A program made the translations under genes and the position numbers. From a virus (taxonomy: Duplodnaviria; Caudoviricetes): a DNA stretch of 62,650 bases. Positions 27,832 through 62,650 of the stretch are shown piece by piece. The notes below the pieces were generated by a model. The model worked only from the letters and a program-made list of their open reading frames with translations, searched no databases and was not told where the DNA came from. The stretch covers positions 1 through 62,650 of the IMG/VR virus record IMGVR_UViG_3300020044_006256; one strand, 5' to 3'. The stretch's first letter is position 1. Each line of letters begins with the position of its first letter.

Positions 27832-27835
27832 TATT

Positions 27836-28177
27836 TTATTTTATATACGTTATTAAATCCTTTATTATAAGGCATAAAGAGATGCCACAAGTAACTAAAA
27901 TTAATAATAGTATATTTGGTAACCACAAACAAAAAAGACCTCCCAAAAGGCTTCCTATTGCAGTTCTTATGACATCATTATAATCAAAGTAAGACTTCAT
28001 CAAATAAGATTGTACCCATTCCCAAAAGAAACCAGCAAATCCTCCAATAATTAAAGATATTAAAGGCACTCCGATAATCTTGCTATAAGTATTAAACTCT
28101 GCAAAGTTTGTTACTGAGCCAATTAAATACATAATTGTAAACCCGATAAAAATATGGTAATAGTCTCTTTTATTCAT
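27836..28177 (-). CDS. Multi-TM membrane protein
   Basis: WEW.Q...FD.ND motif; orthologue of 60860..61204. Confidence 0.65.
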   Translation of the reverse strand: MNKRDYYHIFIGFTIMYLIGSVTNFAEFNTYSKIIGVPLISLIIGGFAGFFWEWVQSYLMKSYFDYNDVIRTAIGSLLGGLFCLWLPNILLLILVTCGISLCLIIKDLITYIK

Positions 28178-28502
28178 AGCTAAAATTGTTGTTTATTGCT
28201 TTGATGCAATGGTCCTTTTCTATCTTGTCTAATATCCACACTAATATTGCACCAATTAGCTTTAAAGTTCTATCTCTTTGATTCTTTCCTAGTGCAGATG
28301 ACAATGTCTCTCTATCATTCCCAAATTGATAGCCATCCTCTTCAATCAAAACCTTATTCCACATTGCTCGAAATTCTCTATTGGCAAACTTATCGATGTT
28401 TATACCAGTAGACTTGAAATAACCGCTTTTGTTCTTAACAAAAAAGAAGTTTATAATCGTTAAAGGTAATAGTAATATGTAAGCAATAATAAAAAGAATC
28501 AT
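28170..28502 (-). CDS. Conserved phage membrane-anchored protein
   Basis: IDKFANREF, FG..ETLSSALGKN, HCIKAI; near-identical to 61899..62213. Confidence 0.7.
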   Translation of the reverse strand: MILFIIAYILLLPLTIINFFFVKNKSGYFKSTGINIDKFANREFRAMWNKVLIEEDGYQFGNDRETLSSALGKNQRDRTLKLIGAILVWILDKIEKDHCIKAINNNFSYE

Positions 28503-28933
28503 AATTGTATTTCATTTGCTTGTATAAATATCTCATCTACTTGTGCATCTGTCAATCCTAGTACATTTTGTAATAGTTGTACTGTTTGGCTACTTCTTTC
28601 TACTGTTGTTCCGTAGTTCCAGATGTATAATGCTCCAGTTTTAGTTGGCTCAGATAAACTATTTAATGCGTTTTCTATTGCTTCCTCTAATCCACCAAGT
28701 TTTAAAATTACTCTTACTCTCCAAAGTTGTACCTCTTGTGGTATTTCTATACTGTCGGCTATTTCTTGACTTGTGGCATTTTCGTAAAATATTCTAGTTT
28801 CAAAGTTGAAATAAGGATTTACAAAATTTTCTGTTAAAAGTTCATCAATAGCCAATTCATTAGATTGTAAATTTTCAACCTCTAAAACCGCATATAATAA
28901 TTTACCGCTATTTTTATCAATAATTGTTTTCAT
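28499..28933 (-). CDS. Tail fibre-associated (assembly chaperone-like) protein
   Basis: Directly after tail fibre; LGLTDAQVDEIFIQA C-terminus; N-terminal third identical to 62210..62644. Confidence 0.6.
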   Translation of the reverse strand: MKTIIDKNSGKLLYAVLEVENLQSNELAIDELLTENFVNPYFNFETRIFYENATSQEIADSIEIPQEVQLWRVRVILKLGGLEEAIENALNSLSEPTKTGALYIWNYGTTVERSSQTVQLLQNVLGLTDAQVDEIFIQANEIQL

Positions 28934-30333
28934 ATTAATTTGTTATTTGAACGCTACTAATTTGGTAAGACTCGGTTGTTGCTGTTGGTTGAATTGATAC
29001 ATACAAATAGAAATCCGCAGAAGTTGTAATTGCAGTTGATAACCTTGCATTAGCATTTTGTATAAAATCTGAAAACAAAGATGTTGTTGCTACTACACCT
29101 TGTAGTAAAGAACTCTTTATCTCAAAATGTCTTTGTATTGTTGAATAGGGATTAAATGCCGAAGTTGTTGTCGCAGTTGCGATGGTTGTAGCAGTTGCAA
29201 AGTTGTTCGTTGAATTTATTTTTAGTCTAACAGTAAAACCAGTTCCAGCATTAGTTGAAACAGTTTGATAGGCTCTAATCACAACATTCATAAAATCAGT
29301 ACTTGCCAATGTGTTTGCAGAAATAGTATATGTTTTTGCTAATGTTTCAGCAGTAACTCCACTAACTGTTGATGAAGCAACCGCATCTGAAACTATTGAT
29401 TTTATTCTTGCATTTAATTGCGTTTGAATAGAACTTGTAACATTATCCAAATATCCTATTTCAGTTGCAGAAACAGTACCTATTGAAGTTGTACTTGGTA
29501 ATACTACAGTTCCAGTAAATGTTGGACTTGCTAATGGTGCTATTCCTAAAGCACTTGCAGTTTTATTTTTCCAAAGTGATGTTGAGTTTTCATAGGCTAA
29601 TAGATTATTATCGGCTAACCCACTTATTGAAACATCGTGTATTTCGTTTAATTCAAATCCATTTTGAACTTTTACAATAATTTCTCCAACTGTTGCACTT
29701 ACTCTTGACACTACACCGATATATACTAAATGTGCTGGAGCAGTTGGTTTGTTTGCTAATCCAAATAATAAATTACCCGAAGTACCTAACCAAACCGCAT
29801 CGCCAATAGTTGCAGTTGAAGTGTCTAAACCATCTAATAAACCACTTGTAATTACATTTACAATAGCATTAGTTGCTCCTGTTGTTTCGAGTAAACCAAG
29901 TGTTTTGCTACTTGTAGCCTCACTTGTATTTGATGCTTTTGAAACGATTATATTCGTTCCGTTTGCGCTTGAAATATAAACCGCTTGACCTTTAGTAATT
30001 CCTAAAGCTAATTTAACAGTAATCTTATCAACTGCGTTTGTGTTTATGTTTGATATTGCAGTATTTACAGCATCAACAGTTGGAAATTTAACACCAGTTC
30101 CATCAGCAGATAAACTATTTTGTTTGTTACCGCTATTTTCTTTTAATGCAAGTGCATCAAATACTCCATTTGAACTTACTGCATTACTACTTCCATCAGT
30201 TGGGGTTGCATCTATTAAAGGTATATCGTCAGTAGTAGCAAAATAATAACCTCCACTTGGTTTATTTGGCAATTCAAATTGTGGATTTTCGCCATTTTCT
30301 ATAAATGTTGCTAATATAAGAGCTTCACCACCA
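28776..30333. repeat. 1558 bp segment shared by both phage circles
   Basis: Left 164 bp equal 62487-62650 and right 121 bp equal 1-121. Confidence 0.8.
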
Positions 30334-31004
30334 CCCATCAAAGGTGCTTTTAATCTTAGAAAACCACCCTCTGTTTTTACATATCCATTAGTTTCGTCAT
30401 TGTCGTAATAAGTAGATATTATATTTCCTTTTACTTTTATTTCATTTGTAGTTTCATTACCGTTATCAGTAACTTGTTGCAATGTTGCAACGCCACTATT
30501 CACTAACTCCCAAACCGCACTTCCTGTCGTTGCATCCGTACAAAGGTAAATATCGCCATTGTCTAAAATCCATCTCGTATCTACGACAAAGCCTTTTGTA
30601 TCGTCATCTGTAACTGTTGGAGTAACTGCGAAATTGTGCGATACTTCTCTAATGGTTGTACCGCCATCGTTCATTATGTAAAGTCTACCTGCTTCCCACT
30701 TATGCTCGTAGCCAACTGCACAAATTTGCGAGATACCTTTTGCGCCTCCGTTTCCTGCATCGATTGTTCCTTTTTTAAGCATCGAACCGTTATCGAGAAT
30801 TACAGCATCGCCATTGGAAATGGATATGTCTGTTCCATCGGTAATGTTTCCGAGTGCTAGGGTTTCGGCTAGGGTTTGAGAGCCTCCGAACTCTGAAAAC
30901 TTAACAGATTTTGATGTGTTTGTGGAAATATCAACAATCTCTAAAACATCATCCGCTGCGGGTGTTCCTATATCTGTTAAATCGGTAATTTTTTTATTTG
31001 CCAT
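28935..31004 (-). CDS. Tail fibre/receptor-binding protein (B-type N-terminus, shared C-terminus)
   Basis: MANKKITDL anchor; TLQQVTDNGN, DATPTDGSSNAVSSNGVFDAL, APLASPTFTG fibre motifs; Thr/Ser-rich tip. Confidence 0.8.
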   Translation of the reverse strand: MANKKITDLTDIGTPAADDVLEIVDISTNTSKSVKFSEFGGSQTLAETLALGNITDGTDISISNGDAVILDNGSMLKKGTIDAGNGGAKGISQICAVGYEHKWEAGRLYIMNDGGTTIREVSHNFAVTPTVTDDDTKGFVVDTRWILDNGDIYLCTDATTGSAVWELVNSGVATLQQVTDNGNETTNEIKVKGNIISTYYDNDETNGYVKTEGGFLRLKAPLMGGGEALILATFIENGENPQFELPNKPSGGYYFATTDDIPLIDATPTDGSSNAVSSNGVFDALALKENSGNKQNSLSADGTGVKFPTVDAVNTAISNINTNAVDKITVKLALGITKGQAVYISSANGTNIIVSKASNTSEATSSKTLGLLETTGATNAIVNVITSGLLDGLDTSTATIGDAVWLGTSGNLLFGLANKPTAPAHLVYIGVVSRVSATVGEIIVKVQNGFELNEIHDVSISGLADNNLLAYENSTSLWKNKTASALGIAPLASPTFTGTVVLPSTTSIGTVSATEIGYLDNVTSSIQTQLNARIKSIVSDAVASSTVSGVTAETLAKTYTISANTLASTDFMNVVIRAYQTVSTNAGTGFTVRLKINSTNNFATATTIATATTTSAFNPYSTIQRHFEIKSSLLQGVVATTSLFSDFIQNANARLSTAITTSADFYLYVSIQPTATTESYQISSVQITN

Positions 31005-34603: not shown

Positions 34604-34668
34604 ATTTTTTTATGTGTTATAATAATGGGGTGTAAGTTTGATTTTACACCCCTTTATCTGATTAATTA

Positions 34669-35685
34669 TTATCCTCCGTAAAGTACTCCTTTTGTAGCTT
34701 GTCCAACATTGGCAGCTAAAGTATAGATTGAACGTACAAATTGAACATCCCCATCATTAACCAATTTACCAACTTCGAATCTGTTTACATCGTCTAACAA
34801 GTCAGTATTCCAAGAAACAGCAACTTTACGTTGTGCGTAAGCCATCAAGTTGTTTGGTGTTGGAACAAATAAGATTTCAACTCCATTGTAATAACATTTT
34901 GAATCGTTAGCAGCAGAATCAAACAAGAAGTTAATTTGTTGCGCAGCTCCAACTGCATTGTTTGCTATTCTCGCAAGTTGTCTCCAAGCACGTGGAGCGT
35001 AGATAACTGTTGGGTTAACTGTATCGGCTAAATTTTCAGCAGGAATAGCAGCGTAAATTTTAGCACATTCCGCAGCGATGTTAGCAGCAGTTACCGTAGT
35101 TCCTGTTACTTTAATATAACCACCGATTGCTGATTGGTCGTAAAGTACTTTAGCGAAAACTCCATCAACTAAACCAGCAGTCAAAGCAGCAACAGCAGTT
35201 TGAGTTGCAGCAGTAATTGAACCTTGTGCAGCGTTTGGTGTTAAAGCAGCGATTGCAGTTTTTGTTGCAGCAGTAATTCCACCCCAAAAGATATTTTCAG
35301 CATCTTGTGAAACATTTGGTCCAACCATAGCTAAAACGGTAGAAGCAAATTCAGAAGATTCAATATTCCAAGCGCCAGGGGTCATAGTACGGTTGAATCT
35401 TGAAGTTCTTAAAGAATCTTGTAAGAACGTTTGTTTGTACTCCAATTTTGTTGGGGTAATTGTACGGTCTGTAATTGTCATTGAACCACTAGAAGATAAT
35501 GCACTTCCTGTGTAAAGTTGAGCGGTAACATCTACACCTGCTTCGGTAAAGATTGTTCCTGCTTTAATGTCTGTGTTGAATGTAACGTAACCATCCGCAA
35601 TCGTTTTGTTTGCGAATAATACTTCTTCTAGGATTGGTTCAACTGCAACCCCTCTAATGTCTACCGGTGTATAAGATAATGCCAT
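34669..35685 (-). CDS. Major capsid protein
   Basis: Follows protease-scaffold; homologous to 4738..5649; GGGGTGTAA/TTACACCCC hairpin downstream (34627-34652). Confidence 0.8.
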   Translation of the reverse strand: MALSYTPVDIRGVAVEPILEEVLFANKTIADGYVTFNTDIKAGTIFTEAGVDVTAQLYTGSALSSSGSMTITDRTITPTKLEYKQTFLQDSLRTSRFNRTMTPGAWNIESSEFASTVLAMVGPNVSQDAENIFWGGITAATKTAIAALTPNAAQGSITAATQTAVAALTAGLVDGVFAKVLYDQSAIGGYIKVTGTTVTAANIAAECAKIYAAIPAENLADTVNPTVIYAPRAWRQLARIANNAVGAAQQINFLFDSAANDSKCYYNGVEILFVPTPNNLMAYAQRKVAVSWNTDLLDDVNRFEVGKLVNDGDVQFVRSIYTLAANVGQATKGVLYGG

Positions 35686-43640: not shown

Positions 43641-43668
43641 TAAATACAAAAAACCCGATTCTGTTTCA
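43641..43668 (-). promoter_or_regulatory. Phage B late promoter TGAAACAG-N12-TGTATTTA
   Basis: Matches 34010-34037. Confidence 0.65.
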
Positions 43669-44871
43669 AAGAATTTCTATTCCGTAGCTTCCTGATAAGT
43701 GATAGGTAACTACATAACGCAATGGGTCAATAAGGTGGTTATAATCGTCGATGTATAAACTCGACTTCTTATCGGTGTAAACAAAGTTGTTAAACTCTTT
43801 CCCTAAATTACTTGAATCTTCATCTACTATAATTGTGTAGTCTAGTAGCAAAGCGATTCCGTGAGTAATTGAACCTGCGCCTTTTTCTGCTCCGATAATA
43901 TTACAACCTAGCGATTGTAATTCGCTTATTAAACGTGGCTCTGCTGAATCCCCAATGATTAACTGATTACCACAAACCGTTCTATTAACGTGTGCTATTT
44001 CTGTTGTGGTTAATTTAGCTTTGTAAAGATGTTCTTTGCAGTAGATAATCTTTTTACGCTTATCAATAGCAACTTCAATTAGTGTTGTAGGATCAATACT
44101 AAATCCGTAATCCTGCCCAAAGGAAGTTTGTAAGTTATCCGGATTGAACCTTCCGTAATTCCAATTCGAGAAAACAACACCCTCCGCTTTGTCAAGCCAT
44201 CCGCCCATTACTGTATGAGCGTACTTCTTTGGGTTATGTATTTTTATTCTTTCAATCTCATTGATGAAGCTTTCATCTAGGTTATCAATGTTATCTAGGT
44301 AGGTAGTATGAATATAAGTAACATCGTCTTTAACGCCATTGAATCCTTCCTGAACTCCAACGCTTTCAAAGAACCTTTTATAAATCCAATGCTCTTTTGT
44401 TGCAGGATTTAAGATTAAGATAATACGGTTTTGTTTTCCCTTTTGTCTAATGGATAGGTTTATCTTATCGAATACGGATTCGTCAACAAGTTCTTCTGCT
44501 TCATCTAATATCCAAGTTGTAACACCTTGTAATGATTTAAGATTTGCGGTTTGGTCTCCGCTTGAAGTCTTTATCCCTTTAAAGATTATTTCACTTTTAG
44601 AATAGTTATGTTTAATCTCGGATTTATTAACTTCAAATAAAGGATTTAATCCCATTAAATCAATCTTCTCTTGAAACTCCGGAATGATTGAAAGGTGTGC
44701 AGATGTCATTGTCTGCCGAGTAAATAGTATTTTATGCCCAGCTTCAAAAGATAATCCACAAAGATAAGATGCAACTCCAAAAGATTTGGAAGAACCCCGC
44801 CCTCCTGTTATAATGAAATACCTTGTTTCGTTTTCTACTAAAGGATAATATTTACTACTTAAGGTTATCAA
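43666..44871 (-). CDS. terL: Terminase large subunit (PBSX-like)
   Basis: GGRGSSKS, LDEAEE, LNP, GQDYG, GDSAEP, NHLIDP. Confidence 0.95.
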   Translation of the reverse strand: MITLSSKYYPLVENETRYFIITGGRGSSKSFGVASYLCGLSFEAGHKILFTRQTMTSAHLSIIPEFQEKIDLMGLNPLFEVNKSEIKHNYSKSEIIFKGIKTSSGDQTANLKSLQGVTTWILDEAEELVDESVFDKINLSIRQKGKQNRIILILNPATKEHWIYKRFFESVGVQEGFNGVKDDVTYIHTTYLDNIDNLDESFINEIERIKIHNPKKYAHTVMGGWLDKAEGVVFSNWNYGRFNPDNLQTSFGQDYGFSIDPTTLIEVAIDKRKKIIYCKEHLYKAKLTTTEIAHVNRTVCGNQLIIGDSAEPRLISELQSLGCNIIGAEKGAGSITHGIALLLDYTIIVDEDSSNLGKEFNNFVYTDKKSSLYIDDYNHLIDPLRYVVTYHLSGSYGIEIL

Positions 44872-45626: not shown

Positions 45627-45989
45627 TTAATATTGTTCAAATACTTTGTCAATCAAATCAATCATTTTATATAATGGCTTTTGTGATTCCTGCGGTTGTG
45701 GTAACCATATTAATCTATTAAACACCGAAGCATATAACTCACATATCCAAATAACAGTTTCTTTGTTAAAAGGGATGCTGCGCTCTTTAAAATCATTCCA
45801 TTGTTTGTATTCTTCTTCTGTTAAACATCGTGCCTTAAATCGATATGGTAATAGTTCGTTTATTTTCTTCTCCCGGTCCTTACATCCGCAGTCTACACCT
45901 TTAACGAATACATCTAACTTTGTAGCTTTTATAACTTCTGCAATAGTTGTTCCAACCCCACTGGATTTTACTATTATTTTTTTACCCAT
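45627..45989 (-). CDS. Cys-containing protein downstream of sigma factor
   Basis: DCGCKDREKKIN; corresponds to two A ORFs. Confidence 0.6.
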   Translation of the reverse strand: MGKKIIVKSSGVGTTIAEVIKATKLDVFVKGVDCGCKDREKKINELLPYRFKARCLTEEEYKQWNDFKERSIPFNKETVIWICELYASVFNRLIWLPQPQESQKPLYKMIDLIDKVFEQY

Positions 45990-46396
45990 CTTTCTCTTTC
46001 TTTGGTTACGGTTCTATGAATGAAATTGACATCCGTTTTTAATTGTTTAGATACTTGCCGGAGTGAATTATCGTGCAGCAATTCTAAATAGCCTTTTGCT
46101 AACCAATGAACTTCTTTTAATATCTCGGCTTGGTAATCATCCGGTTCAAATGGGTCAGCTGATAATATATAATTTTCAACATCATTTAACTTTAATAATG
46201 CTTTATCGTTTCTTATATGTTGAAGGAATAAATTTTTTATAGTAACTATTACATAGAAATCGTTAATCTCTTTATCTACTTTGTATAATTTAAGATACAT
46301 ATCATTGGTTAAATCATCTGCCAACATTTTATCCTTACAGATGTTAAATGCTATCCTGCGCCATTGCTTGTCTTTTTTGGCTAGTTCCTCTAACAT
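45974..46396 (-). CDS. ECF-type sigma factor-like late activator
   Basis: WRRIAFNIC...ADDLTNDMYLKL plus C-terminal HTH SLRQVSKQL. Confidence 0.7.
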   Translation of the reverse strand: MLEELAKKDKQWRRIAFNICKDKMLADDLTNDMYLKLYKVDKEINDFYVIVTIKNLFLQHIRNDKALLKLNDVENYILSADPFEPDDYQAEILKEVHWLAKGYLELLHDNSLRQVSKQLKTDVNFIHRTVTKERERWVKK

Positions 46397-46614
46397 TAGT
46401 TAAATCCTAAAGTTTTTAATGCCAAAACACTTTTAATCTCTGCGAACAACCCTTCGGAAAAATCTAACTCGTAAATCTGACCGCTTAACACTACACCCAA
46501 ATACCCATCTTCATTTACAAAGCAACCCTGCACTTGGTTTATATTAAAATAGAAGTCAACAAAGTACTCATCTTCATCTGTCAAACCGTACATTAGTAAC
46601 TTTGCGACTACCAT
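46396..46614 (-). CDS. Hypothetical protein
   Basis: First ORF after the promoter at 46632. Confidence 0.55.
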   Translation of the reverse strand: MVVAKLLMYGLTDEDEYFVDFYFNINQVQGCFVNEDGYLGVVLSGQIYELDFSEGLFAEIKSVLALKTLGFN

Positions 46615-46631
46615 ATAAATATTATTTCTAA

Positions 46632-46664
46632 CAAATATATAAAAAAAGTAGTTACATTCACTAC
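46632..46664 (-). promoter_or_regulatory. Sigma70-type promoter with 17 bp operator
   Basis: -7 TATATTTG at 46632-46639; GTAGTTACATTCACTAC at 46648-46664. Confidence 0.6.
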
Positions 46665-46693
46665 TATTTAATTATTTTTTTTTATCTTCGTAC

Positions 46694-46756
46694 TTTCATA
46701 GTTTAATTATTTGGTTAATAGTCATTAGATCCCCTTCGGAAGTTGGGGATTTTTTG
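46694..46756 (+). ncRNA. Candidate anti-translation-start sRNA of phage B
   Basis: -7-like TATCTTCG at 46683-46690; begins TTTCATAGTT (complement of AACTATGAAA); plus-strand terminator AGATCCCC/GGGGATTT plus T run although neighbouring genes are minus strand. Confidence 0.5.
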
Positions 46757-46758
46757 AT

Positions 46759-47913
46759 TTACAGTTCAGGTGATTTATCCATTATCTCTTTACGGTTAAT
46801 TTCATTCTGTTTAGTCAAATAGATTAAAGTAGTTTCCTTCTTGCTATGCCCAAACGTGCCTTGAATTGCATCAATGGAAATACCAGCTTCGGCTTTCTTA
46901 TTCGCTCCGTACTTCTTCATCGAATACATCGTTACGTTTATCTTCAATCCTATCTTAACAATCTTTTCCCAACGTTTTGTCGCTGTATCTCTTTTTAGTT
47001 GAGTAGGAGCAGGGATGAAGTCAACGTGCTTTCCAATGTTACCTTTGCCAACTTCCCGAAAGGATCCAAATAAATAATAATCCTTTGGTAAGTTTTCAAA
47101 TTGCAAACTTATAAGGAACTCTTTTAGCTGGGTTGTAATTGGGAGCGTTCGATATTTCTTTCTGCCTTTGGTGATGTTAGGCGGTAGTATTATTAAATCC
47201 CTTTCCATATCAATCATAGAAAGCTTTATACTTAAAATCTCGGTTGGTCTTATTCCTAAATTGTAAATGATTAAGATATAAATATAAAAGTTATAGTGAT
47301 TGTGCAACAACTCTTTCTTAATAAGTTTCATTTGTTCATCGGTTGCAGGAATATGGGCGATACTTTCTTCAACTCGAAGGTTCTTAATATTATGCGCTGG
47401 ATTAGCTTCGATAATATCGTATTGGATTAGTTCACTTAATACCGCTTTTAATTGGTTTAAATGCTTGTTGTAGGCGTTATTGGTCCAGGAGCGTTGCGAT
47501 TGTGCTTTCTCCATTATAGTCTTAATATGAACCCGCTTTACTTCGGTAATAGGTAAATCATTCAATCGTAATGCCTTTACAGCTTTCTTTATAAACTTAA
47601 TTGTCCCCTCATATCCTGATGCTGTTTTCTTTGCGATGTTAGGTCGTTTCTTTTCGATGGCGAAATCGAGTGCTGTGCTAATAGTGTAATTAGTTCCCGT
47701 TTCGGGAATTTCTTTTATATTTGGATTCCAACCTTTATTAAGTTTCTCGTATAGCAGTTCGCATAAAACATCAAATTCCATTTCTTTCTTTTCTAGGTTA
47801 TCGATTTCATTTAAGTTAAAACGGTAGCGGAATTGTTTCTTATTATATCTGAAATGCACGTACCATTTATCCTTTGTTTTATTGATTTTTGGTATAGAAA
47901 AAGTAACAGCCAT
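46759..47913 (-). CDS. int: Tyrosine integrase
   Basis: GIRPTE (R), TKG (K), YSMK, FGH, IY catalytic pattern; adjacent attP. Confidence 0.9.
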   Translation of the reverse strand: MAVTFSIPKINKTKDKWYVHFRYNKKQFRYRFNLNEIDNLEKKEMEFDVLCELLYEKLNKGWNPNIKEIPETGTNYTISTALDFAIEKKRPNIAKKTASGYEGTIKFIKKAVKALRLNDLPITEVKRVHIKTIMEKAQSQRSWTNNAYNKHLNQLKAVLSELIQYDIIEANPAHNIKNLRVEESIAHIPATDEQMKLIKKELLHNHYNFYIYILIIYNLGIRPTEILSIKLSMIDMERDLIILPPNITKGRKKYRTLPITTQLKEFLISLQFENLPKDYYLFGSFREVGKGNIGKHVDFIPAPTQLKRDTATKRWEKIVKIGLKINVTMYSMKKYGANKKAEAGISIDAIQGTFGHSKKETTLIYLTKQNEINRKEIMDKSPEL

Positions 47914-48103
47914 TTGTGTAATATTTGTGTAACGATGTGGAATAAAAAATCGGGAAGCCGTGTTGTTAGTACGTTTCCCGATTATTTGCGGAGAAAGAGG
48001 GAAACTCTGATTACTATTTCTAAAAACTTATATTATTAATTATCAATTAGTTATATTTTTTCAGCGTGTTCTTTTTCGGTTGTTTTGTGTAATATTTGTG
48101 TAA
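47913..48103. other. attP: tRNA-Ser 3'-end core flanked by arm-type repeats
   Basis: Minus-strand TCCCTCTTTCTCCGCA (47987-48002), hairpin AATCGGGAA/TTCCCGATT, and 20 bp direct repeat TTTGTGTAATATTTGTGTAA at 47913 and 48084. Confidence 0.7.
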
Positions 48104-48338
48104 GGGTGTTATCAAACATTTTAGGACTATTTTTAAAGATATAGTTTGCATTAACGTTAAAATGGTTTATGAATGTTTCCACTTGGGCCAAAGTGAATAA
48201 CCAGGAGCGATTTTTCACGCTGTTGAAGTTACCTTTGTTCATTCCAAGAGGGGTGTAAATGTCGGAATAGAACCGAATTTGCCCTTTAGCTTTCAACGCT
48301 TCGATGACATCAAAAATTTTATCAGTAATTGTTTTCAT
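48051..48338 (-). CDS. HTH-like regulator in immunity region
   Basis: LGMNKGNFNSVKN...FNVNANYIF resembles XRE-type HTH. Confidence 0.55.
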   Translation of the reverse strand: MKTITDKIFDVIEALKAKGQIRFYSDIYTPLGMNKGNFNSVKNRSWLFTLAQVETFINHFNVNANYIFKNSPKMFDNTLTQILHKTTEKEHAEKI

Positions 48339-48513: not shown

Positions 48514-48885
48514 TTACTTCTTGTTGCGTTCCTGATCTTTAATGAAATCCATTAAATAAGCCTCATACTTTATCGCTTCTTCCTGTCCTATATTGGATGC
48601 ATTCTCTTTAATGTACTCCAGGAGCCTATTTTTAAAATTATCCGAATTAAATAACTTCTCTACTATTAAAGTAGTGAACTCATCTTCCTTTACTATTACA
48701 CTATTTTGTGTATTCCCATTAAAGAAATTTTCTAATAAAGTTTTCTTTAGTTCTGGGATTTCATCTTCGCCACGCTCCCAATTTATTATGGTATTGCTTG
48801 AAATACATAACAATTCCGCTAACTGCTTTTGAGTCAACCCCTTTTCTTTTCTCTTTTCTCTTAACTCTAATGCATTCATAATCAA
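48514..48885 (-). CDS. XRE-family repressor (CI-like)
   Basis: LREKRKEKGLTQKQLAELLCISSNTIINWERG; divergent from the early operon. Confidence 0.85.
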   Translation of the reverse strand: MIMNALELREKRKEKGLTQKQLAELLCISSNTIINWERGEDEIPELKKTLLENFFNGNTQNSVIVKEDEFTTLIVEKLFNSDNFKNRLLEYIKENASNIGQEEAIKYEAYLMDFIKDQERNKK

Positions 48886-48923: not shown

Positions 48924-49056
48924 ACACAATTTTGTGTATATTTATTTTGTTAATACACAATTCTGTGTATCTTTGTTAAGTCTTACAACAACAACAACAA
49001 CACAAATATAAGAACTTATTTGAATAAGCAATTCTTAAAGTAGTGAATTTAACGAT
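48924..49056. promoter_or_regulatory. Divergent genetic switch region
   Basis: Palindromes ACACAATTTTGTGT (48924) and ACACAATTCTGTGT (48955); plus -7 TATCTTTG (48968); minus -7 TATATTTG (49003-49010); GTAGTGA operator at 49040. Confidence 0.65.
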
Positions 49057-49738: not shown

Positions 49739-49987
49739 TGAGTTCTGATGTCATCAAAGCGGTTGAAGACTTTTTCAATCGTGACAACGAAGCGGAAGGA
49801 GTAGAACATTACACGCAGTTCGACCATATAAGCGAAAGATTAAGACAAACAATAATCGAAATCTTAAAGCTATGACAGACCAAGACAAAAAAGAATTGGC
49901 TTTCATATTTAAAACAGCCAAAGAAGTAGCAATCACAATAACCATAATAATAACAATATTTTTTATCACTCTAAAAATTTATCAACT

Positions 49988-50191
49988 ATGAACGATTTAA
50001 TCAAATTTCAAGCAATCCAAATTTTGACTTTGCAAAGCCGTGTTTCTTATTTAGAAAATGAGTTAAACCAAGCTAAACAACTATTTCAAGACATCGTTAA
50101 TGATTGGGAAGTACACCAAGAAGAAGAAGTAAAGTACAATCCATCTACTACGCAAACAACGAGGCTATGTGTAACGCTTACAAAAGACTAA
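49988..50191 (+). CDS. Hypothetical coiled-coil protein
   Basis: AACTATG start context. Confidence 0.55.
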   Translation: MNDLIKFQAIQILTLQSRVSYLENELNQAKQLFQDIVNDWEVHQEEEVKYNPSTTQTTRLCVTLTKD

Positions 50192-50976: not shown

Positions 50977-50993
50977 AAAAAATAAAAAAATAG

Positions 50994-51036
50994 GTAGTGA
51001 ATATCACTACTAATTGAAAAACATTTTGTAGATTTG
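50994..51036 (+). promoter_or_regulatory. Replication-operon promoter with 17 bp palindromic operator
   Basis: GTAGTGAATATCACTAC at 50994-51010; -7 TAGATTTG at 51029-51036. Confidence 0.65.
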
Positions 51037-51041
51037 CTTTA

Positions 51042-51141
51042 TAGTAACGAAGTGGAACACGTTACAAATTGAAACGACATTACCAAGTCTTATCAACGAA
51101 GCGTGTTCCACATTACCGCTGAATTGATGAGGCTTTTTTTT
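51042..51141 (+). ncRNA. Candidate structured leader/attenuator RNA with loop-loop complementarity
   Basis: Hairpin GTAACG/CGTTAC carrying GTGGAACACG; terminator AAGTCTTATCAA/TTGATGAGGCTT plus T run carrying CGTGTTCCAC. Confidence 0.6.
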
Positions 51142-51199
51142 AACAACAAATGCAAGGTTTAAGCATTCTAATTTTAAACCATAAATAAATATTTTTAAG

Positions 51200-54399: not shown

Positions 54400-54738
54400 A
54401 TGGCAAAAATAACATTTAGTGATGAAAATCAAGCGGGAGATATTCCAACATTTGATATAAGTAAAGAAAAATTATTAGGGGAATATGCCACAATAGTTAA
54501 TGATATGTTGTATACAAGAGAAGGAATGGTAGTAGTTTGTTTTCAATCTTGGAAAGATGCAGATTATGAAAATCAACACCAAGATATTTTGGTATCAAAA
54601 AACGACATTCAAATTGAGGATTTTTTAATTACAGCGGTTGAAGATATAGAAGATGAATTAATTGATTTTAACTTTTTTTGCTTTGACACTTATGAAGATG
54701 CTTTTAAATACTGTATTGACTTAAAAGAAGGGGTGTAA
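54400..54738 (+). CDS. Hypothetical acidic protein
   Basis: ORF in replication operon. Confidence 0.55.
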   Translation: MAKITFSDENQAGDIPTFDISKEKLLGEYATIVNDMLYTREGMVVVCFQSWKDADYENQHQDILVSKNDIQIEDFLITAVEDIEDELIDFNFFCFDTYEDAFKYCIDLKEGV

Positions 54739-56205: not shown

Positions 56206-56331
56206 AAGCAATCGGGATTTTAGGCTTTCCGGATGCGAGAAAAAAGAGAATGATTATGAGGTTACAATCTTTTGGCTTGACACCTTAAAATATGAGAAAC
56301 TACCATTTGATAAAATAGAACCTTATTTACT

Positions 56332-56685
56332 ATGAATATACTAGAACGAATTACAGAAATTAATAGCAGTTTATTACAATACAATTACAATGACCAGGAT
56401 ATAATTTCCTTTTGGGATGAATGTATAAAAACTGCTAATGATAAGCAGCAACTTTTTACGGATGAATTTAAGACTTCTATAAATGGTAAAAAATTAGCTG
56501 ACAAACTAAACAAACTTTTTGGTTTACAATTATTACCAAAGATTAAGCGAAACATTAAAAACGATATTAAGTTTTTGATGCTGGATGAGTTCGGTAAGGT
56601 TTACGAGTTTAAAGGAATTGTTTTAGATTTTTTAGACAACGACATTACCATTGAATTAGATAACTCAACCTTTAGCCTTTATTAA
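56332..56685 (+). CDS. Hypothetical protein
   Basis: ORF in operon. Confidence 0.5.
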   Translation: MNILERITEINSSLLQYNYNDQDIISFWDECIKTANDKQQLFTDEFKTSINGKKLADKLNKLFGLQLLPKIKRNIKNDIKFLMLDEFGKVYEFKGIVLDFLDNDITIELDNSTFSLY

Positions 56686-56687
56686 CT

Positions 56688-56882
56688 ATGAACCAACACA
56701 AAATGTATCGTTGCATTAGGCTTATGCAGTTCCTCCAGGACAAGCCGAGAAATATGCATACAATCGGAAGGTATTTAAACGTAAGCAATAGAACAGTATA
56801 TCGTTATTTAAAACTTTATGAGGCTCTCGGATATTTAGTAACAAAAGACAAATTTGATAAAATACAATTAGTAAAACTATGA
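56688..56882 (+). CDS. Small winged-HTH protein
   Basis: IGRYLNVSNRTVYRYLKLYEALG. Confidence 0.7.
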   Translation: MNQHKMYRCIRLMQFLQDKPRNMHTIGRYLNVSNRTVYRYLKLYEALGYLVTKDKFDKIQLVKL

Positions 56883-60651: not shown

Positions 60652-60863
60652 TGTGTAATATTTTCGTTTGTTTTTTGAGTTCTGAAAAGTGAAAATCCAC
60701 CTGCGCCTAAAAAGCCTAAAAAGACAAACTCTTTAACATCGAACTTGCTGTCAAATAGTGGTAAGAGTGCGTACAAAGTAGCTACGAAAAACGAACTGAA
60801 AGTCATCAAACGCTTTTGACTCCATTTATTATTAACCGTTAAAGTGTCTTTAAAAATCTTCAT
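60648..60863 (-). CDS. Holin-like two-TM protein
   Basis: KWSQKRL followed by two hydrophobic helices. Confidence 0.55.
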   Translation of the reverse strand: MKIFKDTLTVNNKWSQKRLMTFSSFFVATLYALLPLFDSKFDVKEFVFLGFLGAGGFSLFRTQKTNENITQ

Positions 60864-61204
60864 TTAAAATATATTCTCAATTCTTTTATTACTAATGCTA
60901 TTGAAACCCCACAGCTTAACCAAATTAACAAAGTGATGTTCGGCATCCATAAACTGAATAAACCGCCTAAAAGCGTTCCTATTGCAGTCCTGCCGACATC
61001 GTTAAAATCAAAGTATGACTTCATTAACATTGACTGTAACCATTCCCACGCAAACCCAATAGAAGCACCAACGATTAAAGAGATTAAAGGCACTCCAACA
61101 ATCTTACTATAAGTTGTAAACTCTGCAAAGTTTGTTAGTGAACCAATCAGGTACATAATGGTGAAGCCAATCGCTATATGAAGTGCGTTTCTCATAAATT
61201 CCAA
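60860..61204 (-). CDS. Multi-TM membrane protein
   Basis: Orthologue of 27836..28177. Confidence 0.65.
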   Translation of the reverse strand: MEFMRNALHIAIGFTIMYLIGSLTNFAEFTTYSKIVGVPLISLIVGASIGFAWEWLQSMLMKSYFDFNDVGRTAIGTLLGGLFSLWMPNITLLIWLSCGVSIALVIKELRIYFK

Positions 61205-61902
61205 ATAAATGTTAATCCGTTTTGAGGCAATACCGTTGTGTCTTTAAAAGCCATTGCTGAACTCGGCATTGTTCCTTTACTATTATTTGGTAAATTGCTA
61301 TTGGCTTCCAAAGTATTCCAATTACCTGTGATTAGTTTTCTATTGTTCCAATCGTTGTACGTATAAATTCCGTTAACTAATTCGCTTTTACCACGTAACC
61401 CAATTTGAGGATTAACTGCTCCAGCTTGACCGACTGCATCCGAATACACGAATTGGATTGTGTTATCTAACTTTAAAACGATTTGGAATGATACTTTTGT
61501 ACCTGAATAATTCATTATTGAAACCTCTGAAAATTGAACTACAAAATCACCGTTTGTATTCAGTCCGTGTGATATGCTTGAATTTTTGTTATTAGCCATT
61601 AAATTAACGCCAAAAGCTGAAACAACATAATCACACGCCCATCCTTTTACGGTGTTTGAAATAGGACTTTTCACAGTCGCATCCATAATACTACCGTTAT
61701 CCAAGCCTTTACCTAAAGTTATAAATCCATTGTTGTAAATTCTTGCTGAATTGTACGTTGTTCCGCAAAAGATAAAAGAGGAAGGCAAAGTAATTTCGGT
61801 TGAAGTATCAACGTTTAACTGCGTTCCTAATTGCCAAAGCGTTCCGTTTAAAGGCTCAAATGTGCCTTTTAATAAACTAAAGTTGTAGTCTGTTGTTTTC
61901 AT
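61192..61902 (-). CDS. Accessory beta-rich protein resembling Bacteroidota surface-protein domains
   Basis: YNFS...GTF.PL, LP..F.F.G..Y, NNGFITLG, FVVQF, FQIVL...N.IQFVY, QIGLRG; absent from A. Confidence 0.55.
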   Translation of the reverse strand: MKTTDYNFSLLKGTFEPLNGTLWQLGTQLNVDTSTEITLPSSFIFCGTTYNSARIYNNGFITLGKGLDNGSIMDATVKSPISNTVKGWACDYVVSAFGVNLMANNKNSSISHGLNTNGDFVVQFSEVSIMNYSGTKVSFQIVLKLDNTIQFVYSDAVGQAGAVNPQIGLRGKSELVNGIYTYNDWNNRKLITGNWNTLEANSNLPNNSKGTMPSSAMAFKDTTVLPQNGLTFIWNL

Positions 61903-62213
61903 TTTATTGCTTTTATGCAGTGGTTTTTTTCTATTTTATCTAATATCCAAACTAGAACTTTTCCAAATGCGGTTAGTGTTTCATCTCTTTCGTTTTTCCC
62001 TAATGCGGATGACAATGTTTCTGTTTCATCACCAAATTGATAACCGTTATTTTTAATTAATACCTTATTCCACATTGAACGAAATTCTCTGTTTGCAAAC
62101 TTGTCGATGTTAATCGCAGTTGATTTGAAATAACCGCTTTTCTCATCCACAAAAAAGAAGTTTACAATCGTTAAAGGCAATAGCAATATGTATGCGATTA
62201 AAAATAATATCAT
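61899..62213 (-). CDS. Conserved phage membrane-anchored protein
   Basis: Orthologue of 28170..28502. Confidence 0.7.
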   Translation of the reverse strand: MILFLIAYILLLPLTIVNFFFVDEKSGYFKSTAINIDKFANREFRSMWNKVLIKNNGYQFGDETETLSSALGKNERDETLTAFGKVLVWILDKIEKNHCIKAIK

Positions 62214-62644
62214 ATTTGTATCGCATTCGCTTGGATGAATATATCATCAACTTGCGTGTCGGTCAATCCTAAAACGTATTGTAAAAGTTGAACCGTTGCA
62301 CTCCCTCTTTCTATTGTTGTACCGTAATTCCAAACGTACAATGCTCCTGTTTTCATCGGTTCGTCTAATCCGTTCAAAGCGGTTTCGATATTGCTTTCTA
62401 ATCCGCTTAATTTTAGGATAGTTCGCACTCGCCAAAGTTGAACCTCTTGTGGAATTTCTATGCTTTCGGCTATCTCTTGCTCTGTCGCATTTTCGTAAAA
62501 TATTCTAGTTTCAAAGTTGAAATAAGGATTTACAAAATTTTCTGTTAAAAGTTCATCAATAGCCAATTCATTAGATTGTAAATTTTCAACCTCTAAAACC
62601 GCATATAATAATTTACCGCTATTTTTATCAATAATTGTTTTCAT
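62210..62644 (-). CDS. Tail fibre-associated (assembly chaperone-like) protein
   Basis: Orthologue of 28499..28933. Confidence 0.6.
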   Translation of the reverse strand: MKTIIDKNSGKLLYAVLEVENLQSNELAIDELLTENFVNPYFNFETRIFYENATEQEIAESIEIPQEVQLWRVRTILKLSGLESNIETALNGLDEPMKTGALYVWNYGTTIERGSATVQLLQYVLGLTDTQVDDIFIQANAIQI

Positions 62645-62650
62645 ATTAAT
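62487..62650 (+). repeat. Exact repeat of 28776-28939
   Basis: GCATTTTCGTAAAATATTC...TTTTCATATTAAT identical. Confidence 0.95.

Follow-up and report, generated by a model that had tools for sequence, protein, structure and literature searches.

The virus record IMGVR_UViG_3300020044_006256 (Duplodnaviria; Caudoviricetes), analysed over its full length of 62,650 bp (hereafter the window), carries at positions 46683-46756 of the plus strand a short unit made up of a -7-like box, an unstructured U-rich stretch of ~35 bases and a hairpin followed by a U-run, lying between two genes that are both on the minus strand. Box, leader and hairpin are all present as an earlier, preliminary description of this DNA had reported them, including the G.U pair in the hairpin and the U tail on the plus strand. 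Besides the window, 15 loci keep the unit, the total of distinct sequences being 12, and a plus-strand small transcription unit, as first proposed there, is the best reading of its conserved strand-specific terminator and -7 box. We think it probable that a small RNA is made from this strand. That the unit is an RNA gene acting by base pairing has, in our judgement, a little less than an even chance, and we propose more tentatively that the RNA acts in trans on the start regions of other genes.

The gap under study (144 bp) lies between a 72-amino acid (aa) gene and the gene of a tyrosine integrase (int), both on the minus strand. The unit within it has the following features, the start of the RNA and its 3' end both being predicted, the latter from the U-run:

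46683-46690, plus strand: -7-type box TATCTTCG, matching 5/6 specified positions of TAnnTTTG
from 46694, plus strand: UUUCAUAGUUU
46695-46755, plus strand: predicted small RNA, ~61 nucleotides (nt)
46695-46728, plus strand: U-rich 5' part, unstructured in the centroid fold, carrying UUCAUAG (the anti-start motif), UUUGGUU and UCAUUA
46729-46755, plus strand: intrinsic terminator hairpin hp1, with an AUCCCC/GGGGAU stem, a C-GGAA-G tip and then U6

The core of hp1 spans 46729-46750 and its T6 46750-46755, a G.U pair lengthens the stem to 46727-46752 (8 pairs), and the second UCAUUA motif sits directly 5' of the hairpin. The whole of 46694-46756 folds at -14.7 kcal/mol (z -2.43), a value equalled by 4/200 shuffles. 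In a scan of every non-coding gap of 70 nt or more in the window, hp1 was the sole plus-strand hairpin with a T-run between minus-strand genes. The window RNA has no ATG and the short frames of its relatives differ, so that there is no conserved coding frame on the RNA strand. Rfam returned 0 matches at gathering scores, and at E values up to 10 only chance-level ones, the best being nse_sRNA (18 bits vs 75); a blastn search of 46300-47000 against a phage GenBank collection gave no match. The preliminary description had likened the unit to an element in phage A, one of two phage genomes joined in the record (the unit lies in the other, phage B); no such element was found by covariance model R1 or by the hairpin-plus-T-run scan of the window gaps.

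Conservation among related phages

Relatives were gathered by three kinds of search, namely integrase-based, pattern-based and late-gene-based. The order of elements in the gap is conserved. Read in the direction of int, it opens with the int stop codon, an A-run with hp1 and a conserved ACCAAA; an A-rich leader with its ATG comes next, then a second hairpin (hp2) whose T7 is invariant, and a TAnnTTTG box free of mismatches leads up to the ATG of the 72-aa gene. On the RNA strand UCAUA, the complement of AAACTATGAA, is invariant in 12/12 aligned sequences, including those found through their proteins only, and the UUUGGUU and UCAUUA motifs of the 5' part are also conserved.

More distant integrase relatives at 47-61% identity (L009-L015, L017-L021) are without the unit, some of them having plain bidirectional terminators after int. 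Among Flavobacterium genomes, a covariance-model scan matched 0/5 in one set and gave weak matches in 8/151 (E 3.6e-6 to 8e-4), all of which were rejected as non-homologous. Gene context was listed for three of these eight (L061, L063 and L067), which are ordinary terminators behind host metabolic genes, the names of the enzymes being our own reading of the translations; the other five were judged by model alignment only.

Strand and structure of the hairpin

Its stability in the plus sense, its G.U pairs, its covariation and its plus-strand U-run together identify hp1 as a plus-strand intrinsic terminator. Folded alone, it is more stable in the plus sense in 9/9 distinct sequences (mean -11.0 vs -6.3 kcal/mol). 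In that sense the loop is a GNRA tetraloop in 7/9, and six of the nine sequences contain one or two G.U pairs, which turn into A.C mismatches on the other strand. In an alignment of 12 distinct rows (A4), fitted to model R1 in a way that somewhat favours structure and to that extent weakens the case, 92.3% of hp1 pair cells are standard vs 72.2% after shuffling, and 9/13 pairs have changed on both sides. The covariation score is 0.625 vs 0.243 for shuffled alignments (0/500 shuffles), and at most 0.127 with slid partners. Standard pairs fill 144/156 cells in the plus sense, 28 of the cells being G.U, vs 116/156 in the reverse complement, and the U-run is found on the plus strand in all sequences.

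Upstream of hp1 there is no plus-strand gene, only the 34-nt conserved leader behind the -7 box. Flavobacterium host genes end in hp1-like terminators with a G+C stem, a GNRA tip and a U-run; theirs follow a gene on the same strand, whereas hp1 follows none.

Elsewhere in phage B, a 10-bp G+C-rich hairpin at 34627-34652 comes after a 338-aa gene (34669-35685), which we take to be possibly the major capsid gene, and the better of its T-runs lies on the plus strand, not on the strand of the gene. T tails on the wrong side can thus occur in phage B without further meaning.

Candidate promoter box and predicted RNA length

The box is a perfect TAnnTTTG in 8/15 loci and one base off in the remaining 7, the window included. 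Perfect boxes are spread over three hairpin/seed lineages, as TATCTTTG in L003, L004, L005, L030 and L047 and as TATATTTG in L044-L046, and the imperfect ones deviate by one base at position 7 or 8. A T-run just upstream of the box is invariant, and the box stands 39-40 nt before the base of the hairpin (in the window, 47 nt separate the first base of the box from the hp1 base). In Flavobacterium psychrophilum the sigma-A box lies at -12 to -5 (PMC9723704), and this spacing, with which the 5' end proposed earlier for the window agrees, would place the +1 of the RNA near 46695, on the invariant UCAUA. For every locus a length of 59-62 nt is predicted despite several indels (the lengths for L003, L004, L005 and L030 were counted by hand).

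Several observations count against an RNA gene with its own promoter. The window box is imperfect, reading TTCG for TTTG, and the boxes of the three closest members of its lineage are imperfect too; no -33 TTTG is present in the window or in any relative; perfect boxes are expected by chance at rates per position of ~0.0008 (coding) and ~0.002 (non-coding) in the DNA of these genomes; and among 24 sequencing runs listed, no RNA run holding this DNA was found. The missing -33 element need not be a problem for the candidate unit, since in Flavobacterium johnsoniae no -33 motif was detectable by RNA sequencing and in Flavobacterium the motif is not needed for recognition (PMC7366714). Chance boxes are not rare in these AT-rich genomes, and the box is therefore a probable but not a proven promoter of the small RNA; the window copy may be weak.

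With the terminator well supported and the promoter less so, the unit might be an insulator only, hp1 stopping stray or divergent transcription into int or into the early promoter and the short RNA being a by-product that has no target. The very similar GNRA-tipped terminators of Flavobacterium genes fit such a role, and the back-to-back promoters of the RNA and the late operon, 43 bp apart, could control the late promoter by competition. We nevertheless consider an insulator unlikely, though still to be reckoned with, because it leaves unexplained the invariant UCAUA, the conserved UUUGGUU and UCAUUA in the 5' part, the constant length of the RNA and the co-variation of the unit with the start of an early gene, gene X, described below.

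Relation to the integrase gene

The features of the minus strand that bear on the unit are as follows:

46759-47913, minus strand: int, tyrosine integrase (PF00589, E 2.1e-14)
46699-46682, minus strand: miniature open reading frame (mini-ORF) MKVRR with its stop, mirroring the RNA 5' end and the box
46641-46665, minus strand: hp2, AGTAGT-N7-ACTACT then U7, likely terminator of the integrase transcript
46632-46639, minus strand: late-operon -7 box TATATTTG (perfect match), facing away from the RNA box
46396-46614, minus strand: first late gene, 72 aa, which always adjoins the candidate unit

Nine loci in which int is present or only recently lost were folded, and in all of them (9/9) hp2 reaches -3.6 to -7.6 kcal/mol and carries the invariant T7. 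It is degenerate in the integrase-less L044-L046 (-0.6 to -1.6 kcal/mol), where the RNA box is perfect and hp1 intact, and in L047, where another gene replaces int and the unit is kept, hp2 is absent by direct reading of the sequence. The integrase-less relatives G004/L028 and L044-L046, together with L047, keep the box, the 5' part and hp1. Since the unit is kept while hp2 is lost in the relatives that have no integrase, we conclude that hp2 is likely the integrase terminator and that the unit has a role independent of the integrase. The hairpin is thus not simply the terminator of int, one of the ways in which the preliminary description could have failed.

Neither G004 (33.8 kb, rated complete) nor L044-L046 has an integrase or a repressor gene, and in these phages the unit lies between the late operon and a strong early promoter, TTTG-N19-TATATTTG, of the same orientation. 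The homology between G004 and the window stops immediately after the T-run of hp1. In G004 (L040/L041) and L044-L046 the entire lysogeny module (integrase, attachment site attP, a 95-aa gene and repressor) is absent, and ~230 bp with a strong early promoter are found instead; these phages look like natural virulent derivatives of a temperate phage.

The RNA would be convergent with int. Its U-run ends at 46755-46756 and the int stop codon is at 46759-46761, so there is no overlap with the coding end; by geometry, the RNA is perfectly complementary over 60 nt to the int 3' untranslated region (UTR). An RNA acting in cis only, in the manner of OOP of phage lambda, would pair with this 3' UTR and lower Int through double-strand cleavage. 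The convergent arrangement is seen in 11/16 loci, with the RNA ending 3 nt before the int stop, and the int transcript most likely reaches hp2, which is what makes the complementarity complete. We rate a purely cis-acting antisense RNA as clearly improbable all the same: four phages that have no int and one with another upstream gene retain the unit, its box perfect and its hairpin intact, and it is hp2 that decays there.

The mini-ORF is probably not a gene. Its ATG is kept in all relatives, and it is mostly 5 codons long (3 for the L002 type, 6 for L047 and 10 for L044-L046); in L044-L046 a deletion of 1 nt, which preserves the promoter geometry, takes the ATG out of frame with the usual stop. 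This variation in frame and length also answers the earlier concern that the site might be just the start of MKVRR. The late box TAnnTTTG, in turn, is kept in 9/9 aligned sequences with its two free positions varying, 4-17 nt before the ATG of the 72-aa gene. We also weighed whether the whole stretch works on the minus strand only, as an int 3' UTR in which hp1 stabilises or terminates the transcript and MKVRR is translated, no plus-strand RNA being made. The invariant ATG with its good A-rich leader and the minus-strand terminator that follows (hp2 with U7) would suit this arrangement. It is very unlikely, given that in the int sense hp1 has A.C mismatches for G.U pairs, no GNRA loop and no U-run, that neither the length nor the frame of the mini-ORF is kept, and that the integrase-less phages keep the region without an upstream minus-strand gene or a perfect promoter box.

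Finally, the unit adjoins int and lies upstream of the packaging genes, which raises the question of a DNA site, be it attP or another site of recombination or packaging. The bases covary as in an RNA helix that contains wobble pairs, and attP is found on the other side of int:

47988-48002, minus strand: attP core, 15 nt identical to the 3' end of tRNA-Ser(tga), upstream of int

We regard a DNA site as extremely unlikely, and the unit as attP is ruled out by the position of the tRNA-Ser 3'-end identity; no tRNA-like stretch was found in 46615-46758. The attP core is followed by a terminator of its own (47951-47980 with a T-run), and tRNA-Ser(tga) lies 130-220 nt upstream of the integrase in 5/12 related loci scanned. 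The bare 15-nt tRNA end upstream of int indicates that phage B is present in its unintegrated form. On the minus strand the core lies between two copies, at 47913-47935 and ~48085-48105, of a 20-nt repeat containing ACACAA words; these are likely the arm sites of the integrase.

Complementarity to early start regions

The free 5' part of the predicted RNA is complementary to the start regions of early genes, two of which are candidate targets in the window:

49979-49996, plus strand: start region of gene X (49988-50191, 67 aa), best candidate target in trans
56679-56696, plus strand: start region of the HTH_11 gene (56688-56882), second candidate target, 9-nt match

The argument for pairing comes from comparison across ten genomes, in which the seed occurs in three forms that mirror CTATG, CATTATG and TATTATG. 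Early-strand starts reading ACTATG number 4/15, 3/26, 5/18 and 5/22 in four CTATG-type genomes, and 0/2 in the fifth, the fragment G005; those reading CATTATG number 3/16, 3/12, 1/18 and 0/19 in the CATTATG-type genomes. Late-strand genes are almost without starts of either kind. An ATG-anchored run of at least 8 nt shared with the element is present at 34/176 early-strand vs 17/267 late-strand starts. A k-mer test restricted to positions -4 to +5 gave 0 extra sites in G001 and G002; the register-free, ATG-anchored comparison shows matches that are shifted upstream.

Among 34 gene families, gene X ranks first for matching the element of its own genome over those of other lineages (8.75 vs 5.12 nt), an excess of 3.62 where all families give 0.25 +/- 0.87. 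It is followed by the 95-aa gene by attP and then by the HTH_11 gene at 56688, and early-strand families as a whole exceed late-strand ones (0.73 vs -0.02; Mann-Whitney p 0.006). Element and gene X match over 14 nt in G004 and over 10 nt in G007, both extending to ~17-20 nt with one indel, and over 9 nt in the window, G001 and G008. By duplex energy gene X is placed 2nd to 4th in 5/9 genomes, and its start follows the seed type in 7/9.

Within the window, AACTATGAA occurs five times, once in the element (minus strand) and on the plus strand at 49984, 50596, 56684 and 56875, where shuffling leads one to expect 1.67 and 1/100 shuffles reaches 5. Three of the four plus-strand sites coincide with the ATG of an ORF, at 49988 (67 aa), 50600 (35 aa) and 56688 (64 aa); the ATG of the fourth, at 56879, opens only 17 codons. 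The preliminary description had named the first three sites correctly and had put the fourth, as an early ORF start, at 56874. It had also placed ACTATGAA at 56329, where the motif is indeed present, at the start of a 117-aa ORF (56332).

These matches have to be set against evidence that weighs on the other side. The seed match of the window amounts to 9 AU-rich bases only, and among the 98 called starts 13% begin with a 9-mer no less recurrent than AACTATGAA. The starts of the record are A/T-rich (position -1 is A or T in 90/97, and the fourth base is A in 52/97), so that any start-like sequence resembles others. Target prediction with shuffled controls, which the preliminary description had suggested as a check, gave a mixed result: duplex energies were not consistently better than those of dinucleotide shuffles, of which fractions of 0.16, 0.09, 0.55, 0.60 and 0.02 were as good. 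Ranked by duplex energy, gene X is far from the top in the window (21st of 45), G002 (19th of 53) and G003 (27th of 56). The run shared with gene X is only 4 in G002, and in G003, which has a different seed, 4/28 early starts read ACTATG as in the window. By seed type the genomes fall into about three lineages, hence few independent events, and gene conversion acting on two copies of a short repeat could have produced the co-variation of seed and gene X. Judged from the window by itself, the anti-start-codon claim would fail. What stands of the earlier proposal that the seed is matched to the phage's own leaders is the comparative part, in which the seed variant follows gene X and early starts across relatives; in the window the match is ordinary, and G002 and G003 do not fit. 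A site at 54738 that emerged as the top duplex match was discarded, as it pairs with the C-run of the stem and was obtained with a 52-nt query that included half of the stem.

Several early genes (49984, 56329, 56684, 56875 and their relatives) share a lineage-specific start-region tag, TATYWACTATGAAY. The tag takes the form ACTATG in one phage group and ACATTATG in another, and is nearly absent from late genes. It calls for an explanation whatever the small RNA does.

Genome context and host

The record consists of two related phage genomes joined head-to-tail in the same orientation (a part of A, then B, then an A-like part). Positions 1-300 resemble 30213-30512 (89%) and 60859-62650 resemble 27835-28939 (73-92%), with junctions near 27.7 kb and 57.4-60.9 kb; phage B accordingly extends over ~27.8-57.4 kb, perhaps to 60.9 kb. 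A tail gene runs across the ends of the record with ~1.3 kb missing. The arrangement may be a tandem or concatemer, or an assembly chimera formed through shared tail genes, and the 100% completeness estimate of the record is to be read with this composite nature in mind. The remaining features of phage B that we refer to are:

minus strand: structural genes
43666-44871, minus strand: large terminase
45974-46396, minus strand: sigma-70 region 2, a weak match (E 7.9e-5) under the Pfam cut-off
beyond the integrase, adjoining attP: 95-aa gene (at 48338)
48514-48885: HTH_3 repressor-like gene
from 49106 onward, plus strand: early operon

No PHROGs or Pfam family was found for the 72-aa late gene or for gene X. 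Integrase relatives at 53-61% identity occur in Flavobacterium genomes and in one Cytophagales metagenome-assembled genome, and the host of phage B is therefore most likely a Flavobacterium.

Two further regions are of separate interest. An early promoter, TTTG-N18-TATCTTTG, at 48946-48975 is overlaid by ACACAA-N4-TGTGT palindromes that are likely repressor operators. On the minus strand, 50977-51199 forms a gap within the plus-strand early operon, in which a 10-bp inverted repeat around a 40-nt loop is followed by a hairpin, AGTAGTGA-TAT-TCACTAC, with a T7 run resembling that of hp2. This stretch has a 176-nt fold at -36.5 kcal/mol (z -3.1) and may be a second small RNA, of the minus strand, or a replication origin.

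Comparison with known regulatory RNAs

A phage RNA that covers a start region is of a known kind; the candidate family is new to Rfam. Sar RNA of P22 and RNA-OUT of IS10 are ~70-nt antisense RNAs that cover the ribosome-loading site and start codon of a gene of their element. Both lie opposite their true target gene, whereas the strand opposite the phage unit holds only the mini-ORF of 3-10 codons; its plausible targets are 1.3-10 kb away, which would mean action in trans, unlike Sar and RNA-OUT. OOP RNA of lambda, 77 nt long, has its own promoter and terminator, is convergent with a lysogeny gene and is complementary to the 3' end of its mRNA. It overlaps the coding end of cII, whereas the predicted RNA would end 3 nt before the int stop codon and persists in integrase-less phages. 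Closer in their mode of action are c4 RNA of P1/P7 and DicF of the Qin prophage, phage RNAs that use short seeds on the start regions of their targets in trans (ant and ftsZ, respectively). The predicted RNA differs from both, c4 being processed from the operon of its own target and DicF having a host gene as target, and to our knowledge neither is known from Bacteroidota.

Within the same phylum the nearest likeness is to GibS of Bacteroides thetaiotaomicron, a trans-encoded RNA of about 145 nt that is chromosomal, regulates metabolic genes and has no sequence similarity to the phage unit, whose transcript and target are predicted. GibS has the build proposed for the phage unit, with its own promoter, a long free AU-rich 5' part and a Rho-independent terminator, and its unstructured 5' part serves as an extended seed across the start codons of targets that have no Shine-Dalgarno sequence (PMC7366714). 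The same source states that very few base-pairing RNAs have been characterised in Bacteroidota (PMC7366714). Literature searches, at the level of result listings, found no regulatory RNA of a phage of Flavobacterium or of other Bacteroidota.

Proposed function and significance

Under the base-pairing explanation, which we prefer, a host-type sigma-A -7 box would drive an RNA starting near 46695, back to back with the late-operon promoter and toward the end of the int gene. The transcript would comprise ~34 unstructured U-rich bases and then the GNRA-tipped terminator with its U-run, ~60 nt in total. Its free 5' part would exactly mirror a start region of the early type (A-rich leader, AUG, AA), and pairing over the AUG of a few early mRNAs of the phage, with gene X (67 aa, 49988) as the best candidate, would block ribosome loading in a phylum that does without Shine-Dalgarno sequences. 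In temperate members the RNA may also pair with the 3' UTR of the int mRNA and shorten the life of that mRNA, much as OOP of lambda trims the cII mRNA.

The unit is short and sharply bounded, is conserved in no fewer than 12 distinct phage sequences, and exists in nature with variant seeds and in integrase-less versions. It would make a test case for control by RNA pairing where an AUG and an A-rich leader are the sole signal for ribosome loading, and if the link to gene X holds it would give a first handle on the early protein X. A broader proposal, to which we give a low though not negligible probability, is that Bacteroidota phages carry a class of tiny RNAs whose free 5' end mirrors, and co-evolves with, the start regions of their own early genes, and which switch off early translation at the onset of late transcription. 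Were such a class to exist, its host-type promoter could also give lysogens a layer of RNA-based immunity against relatives that share the same start tag.

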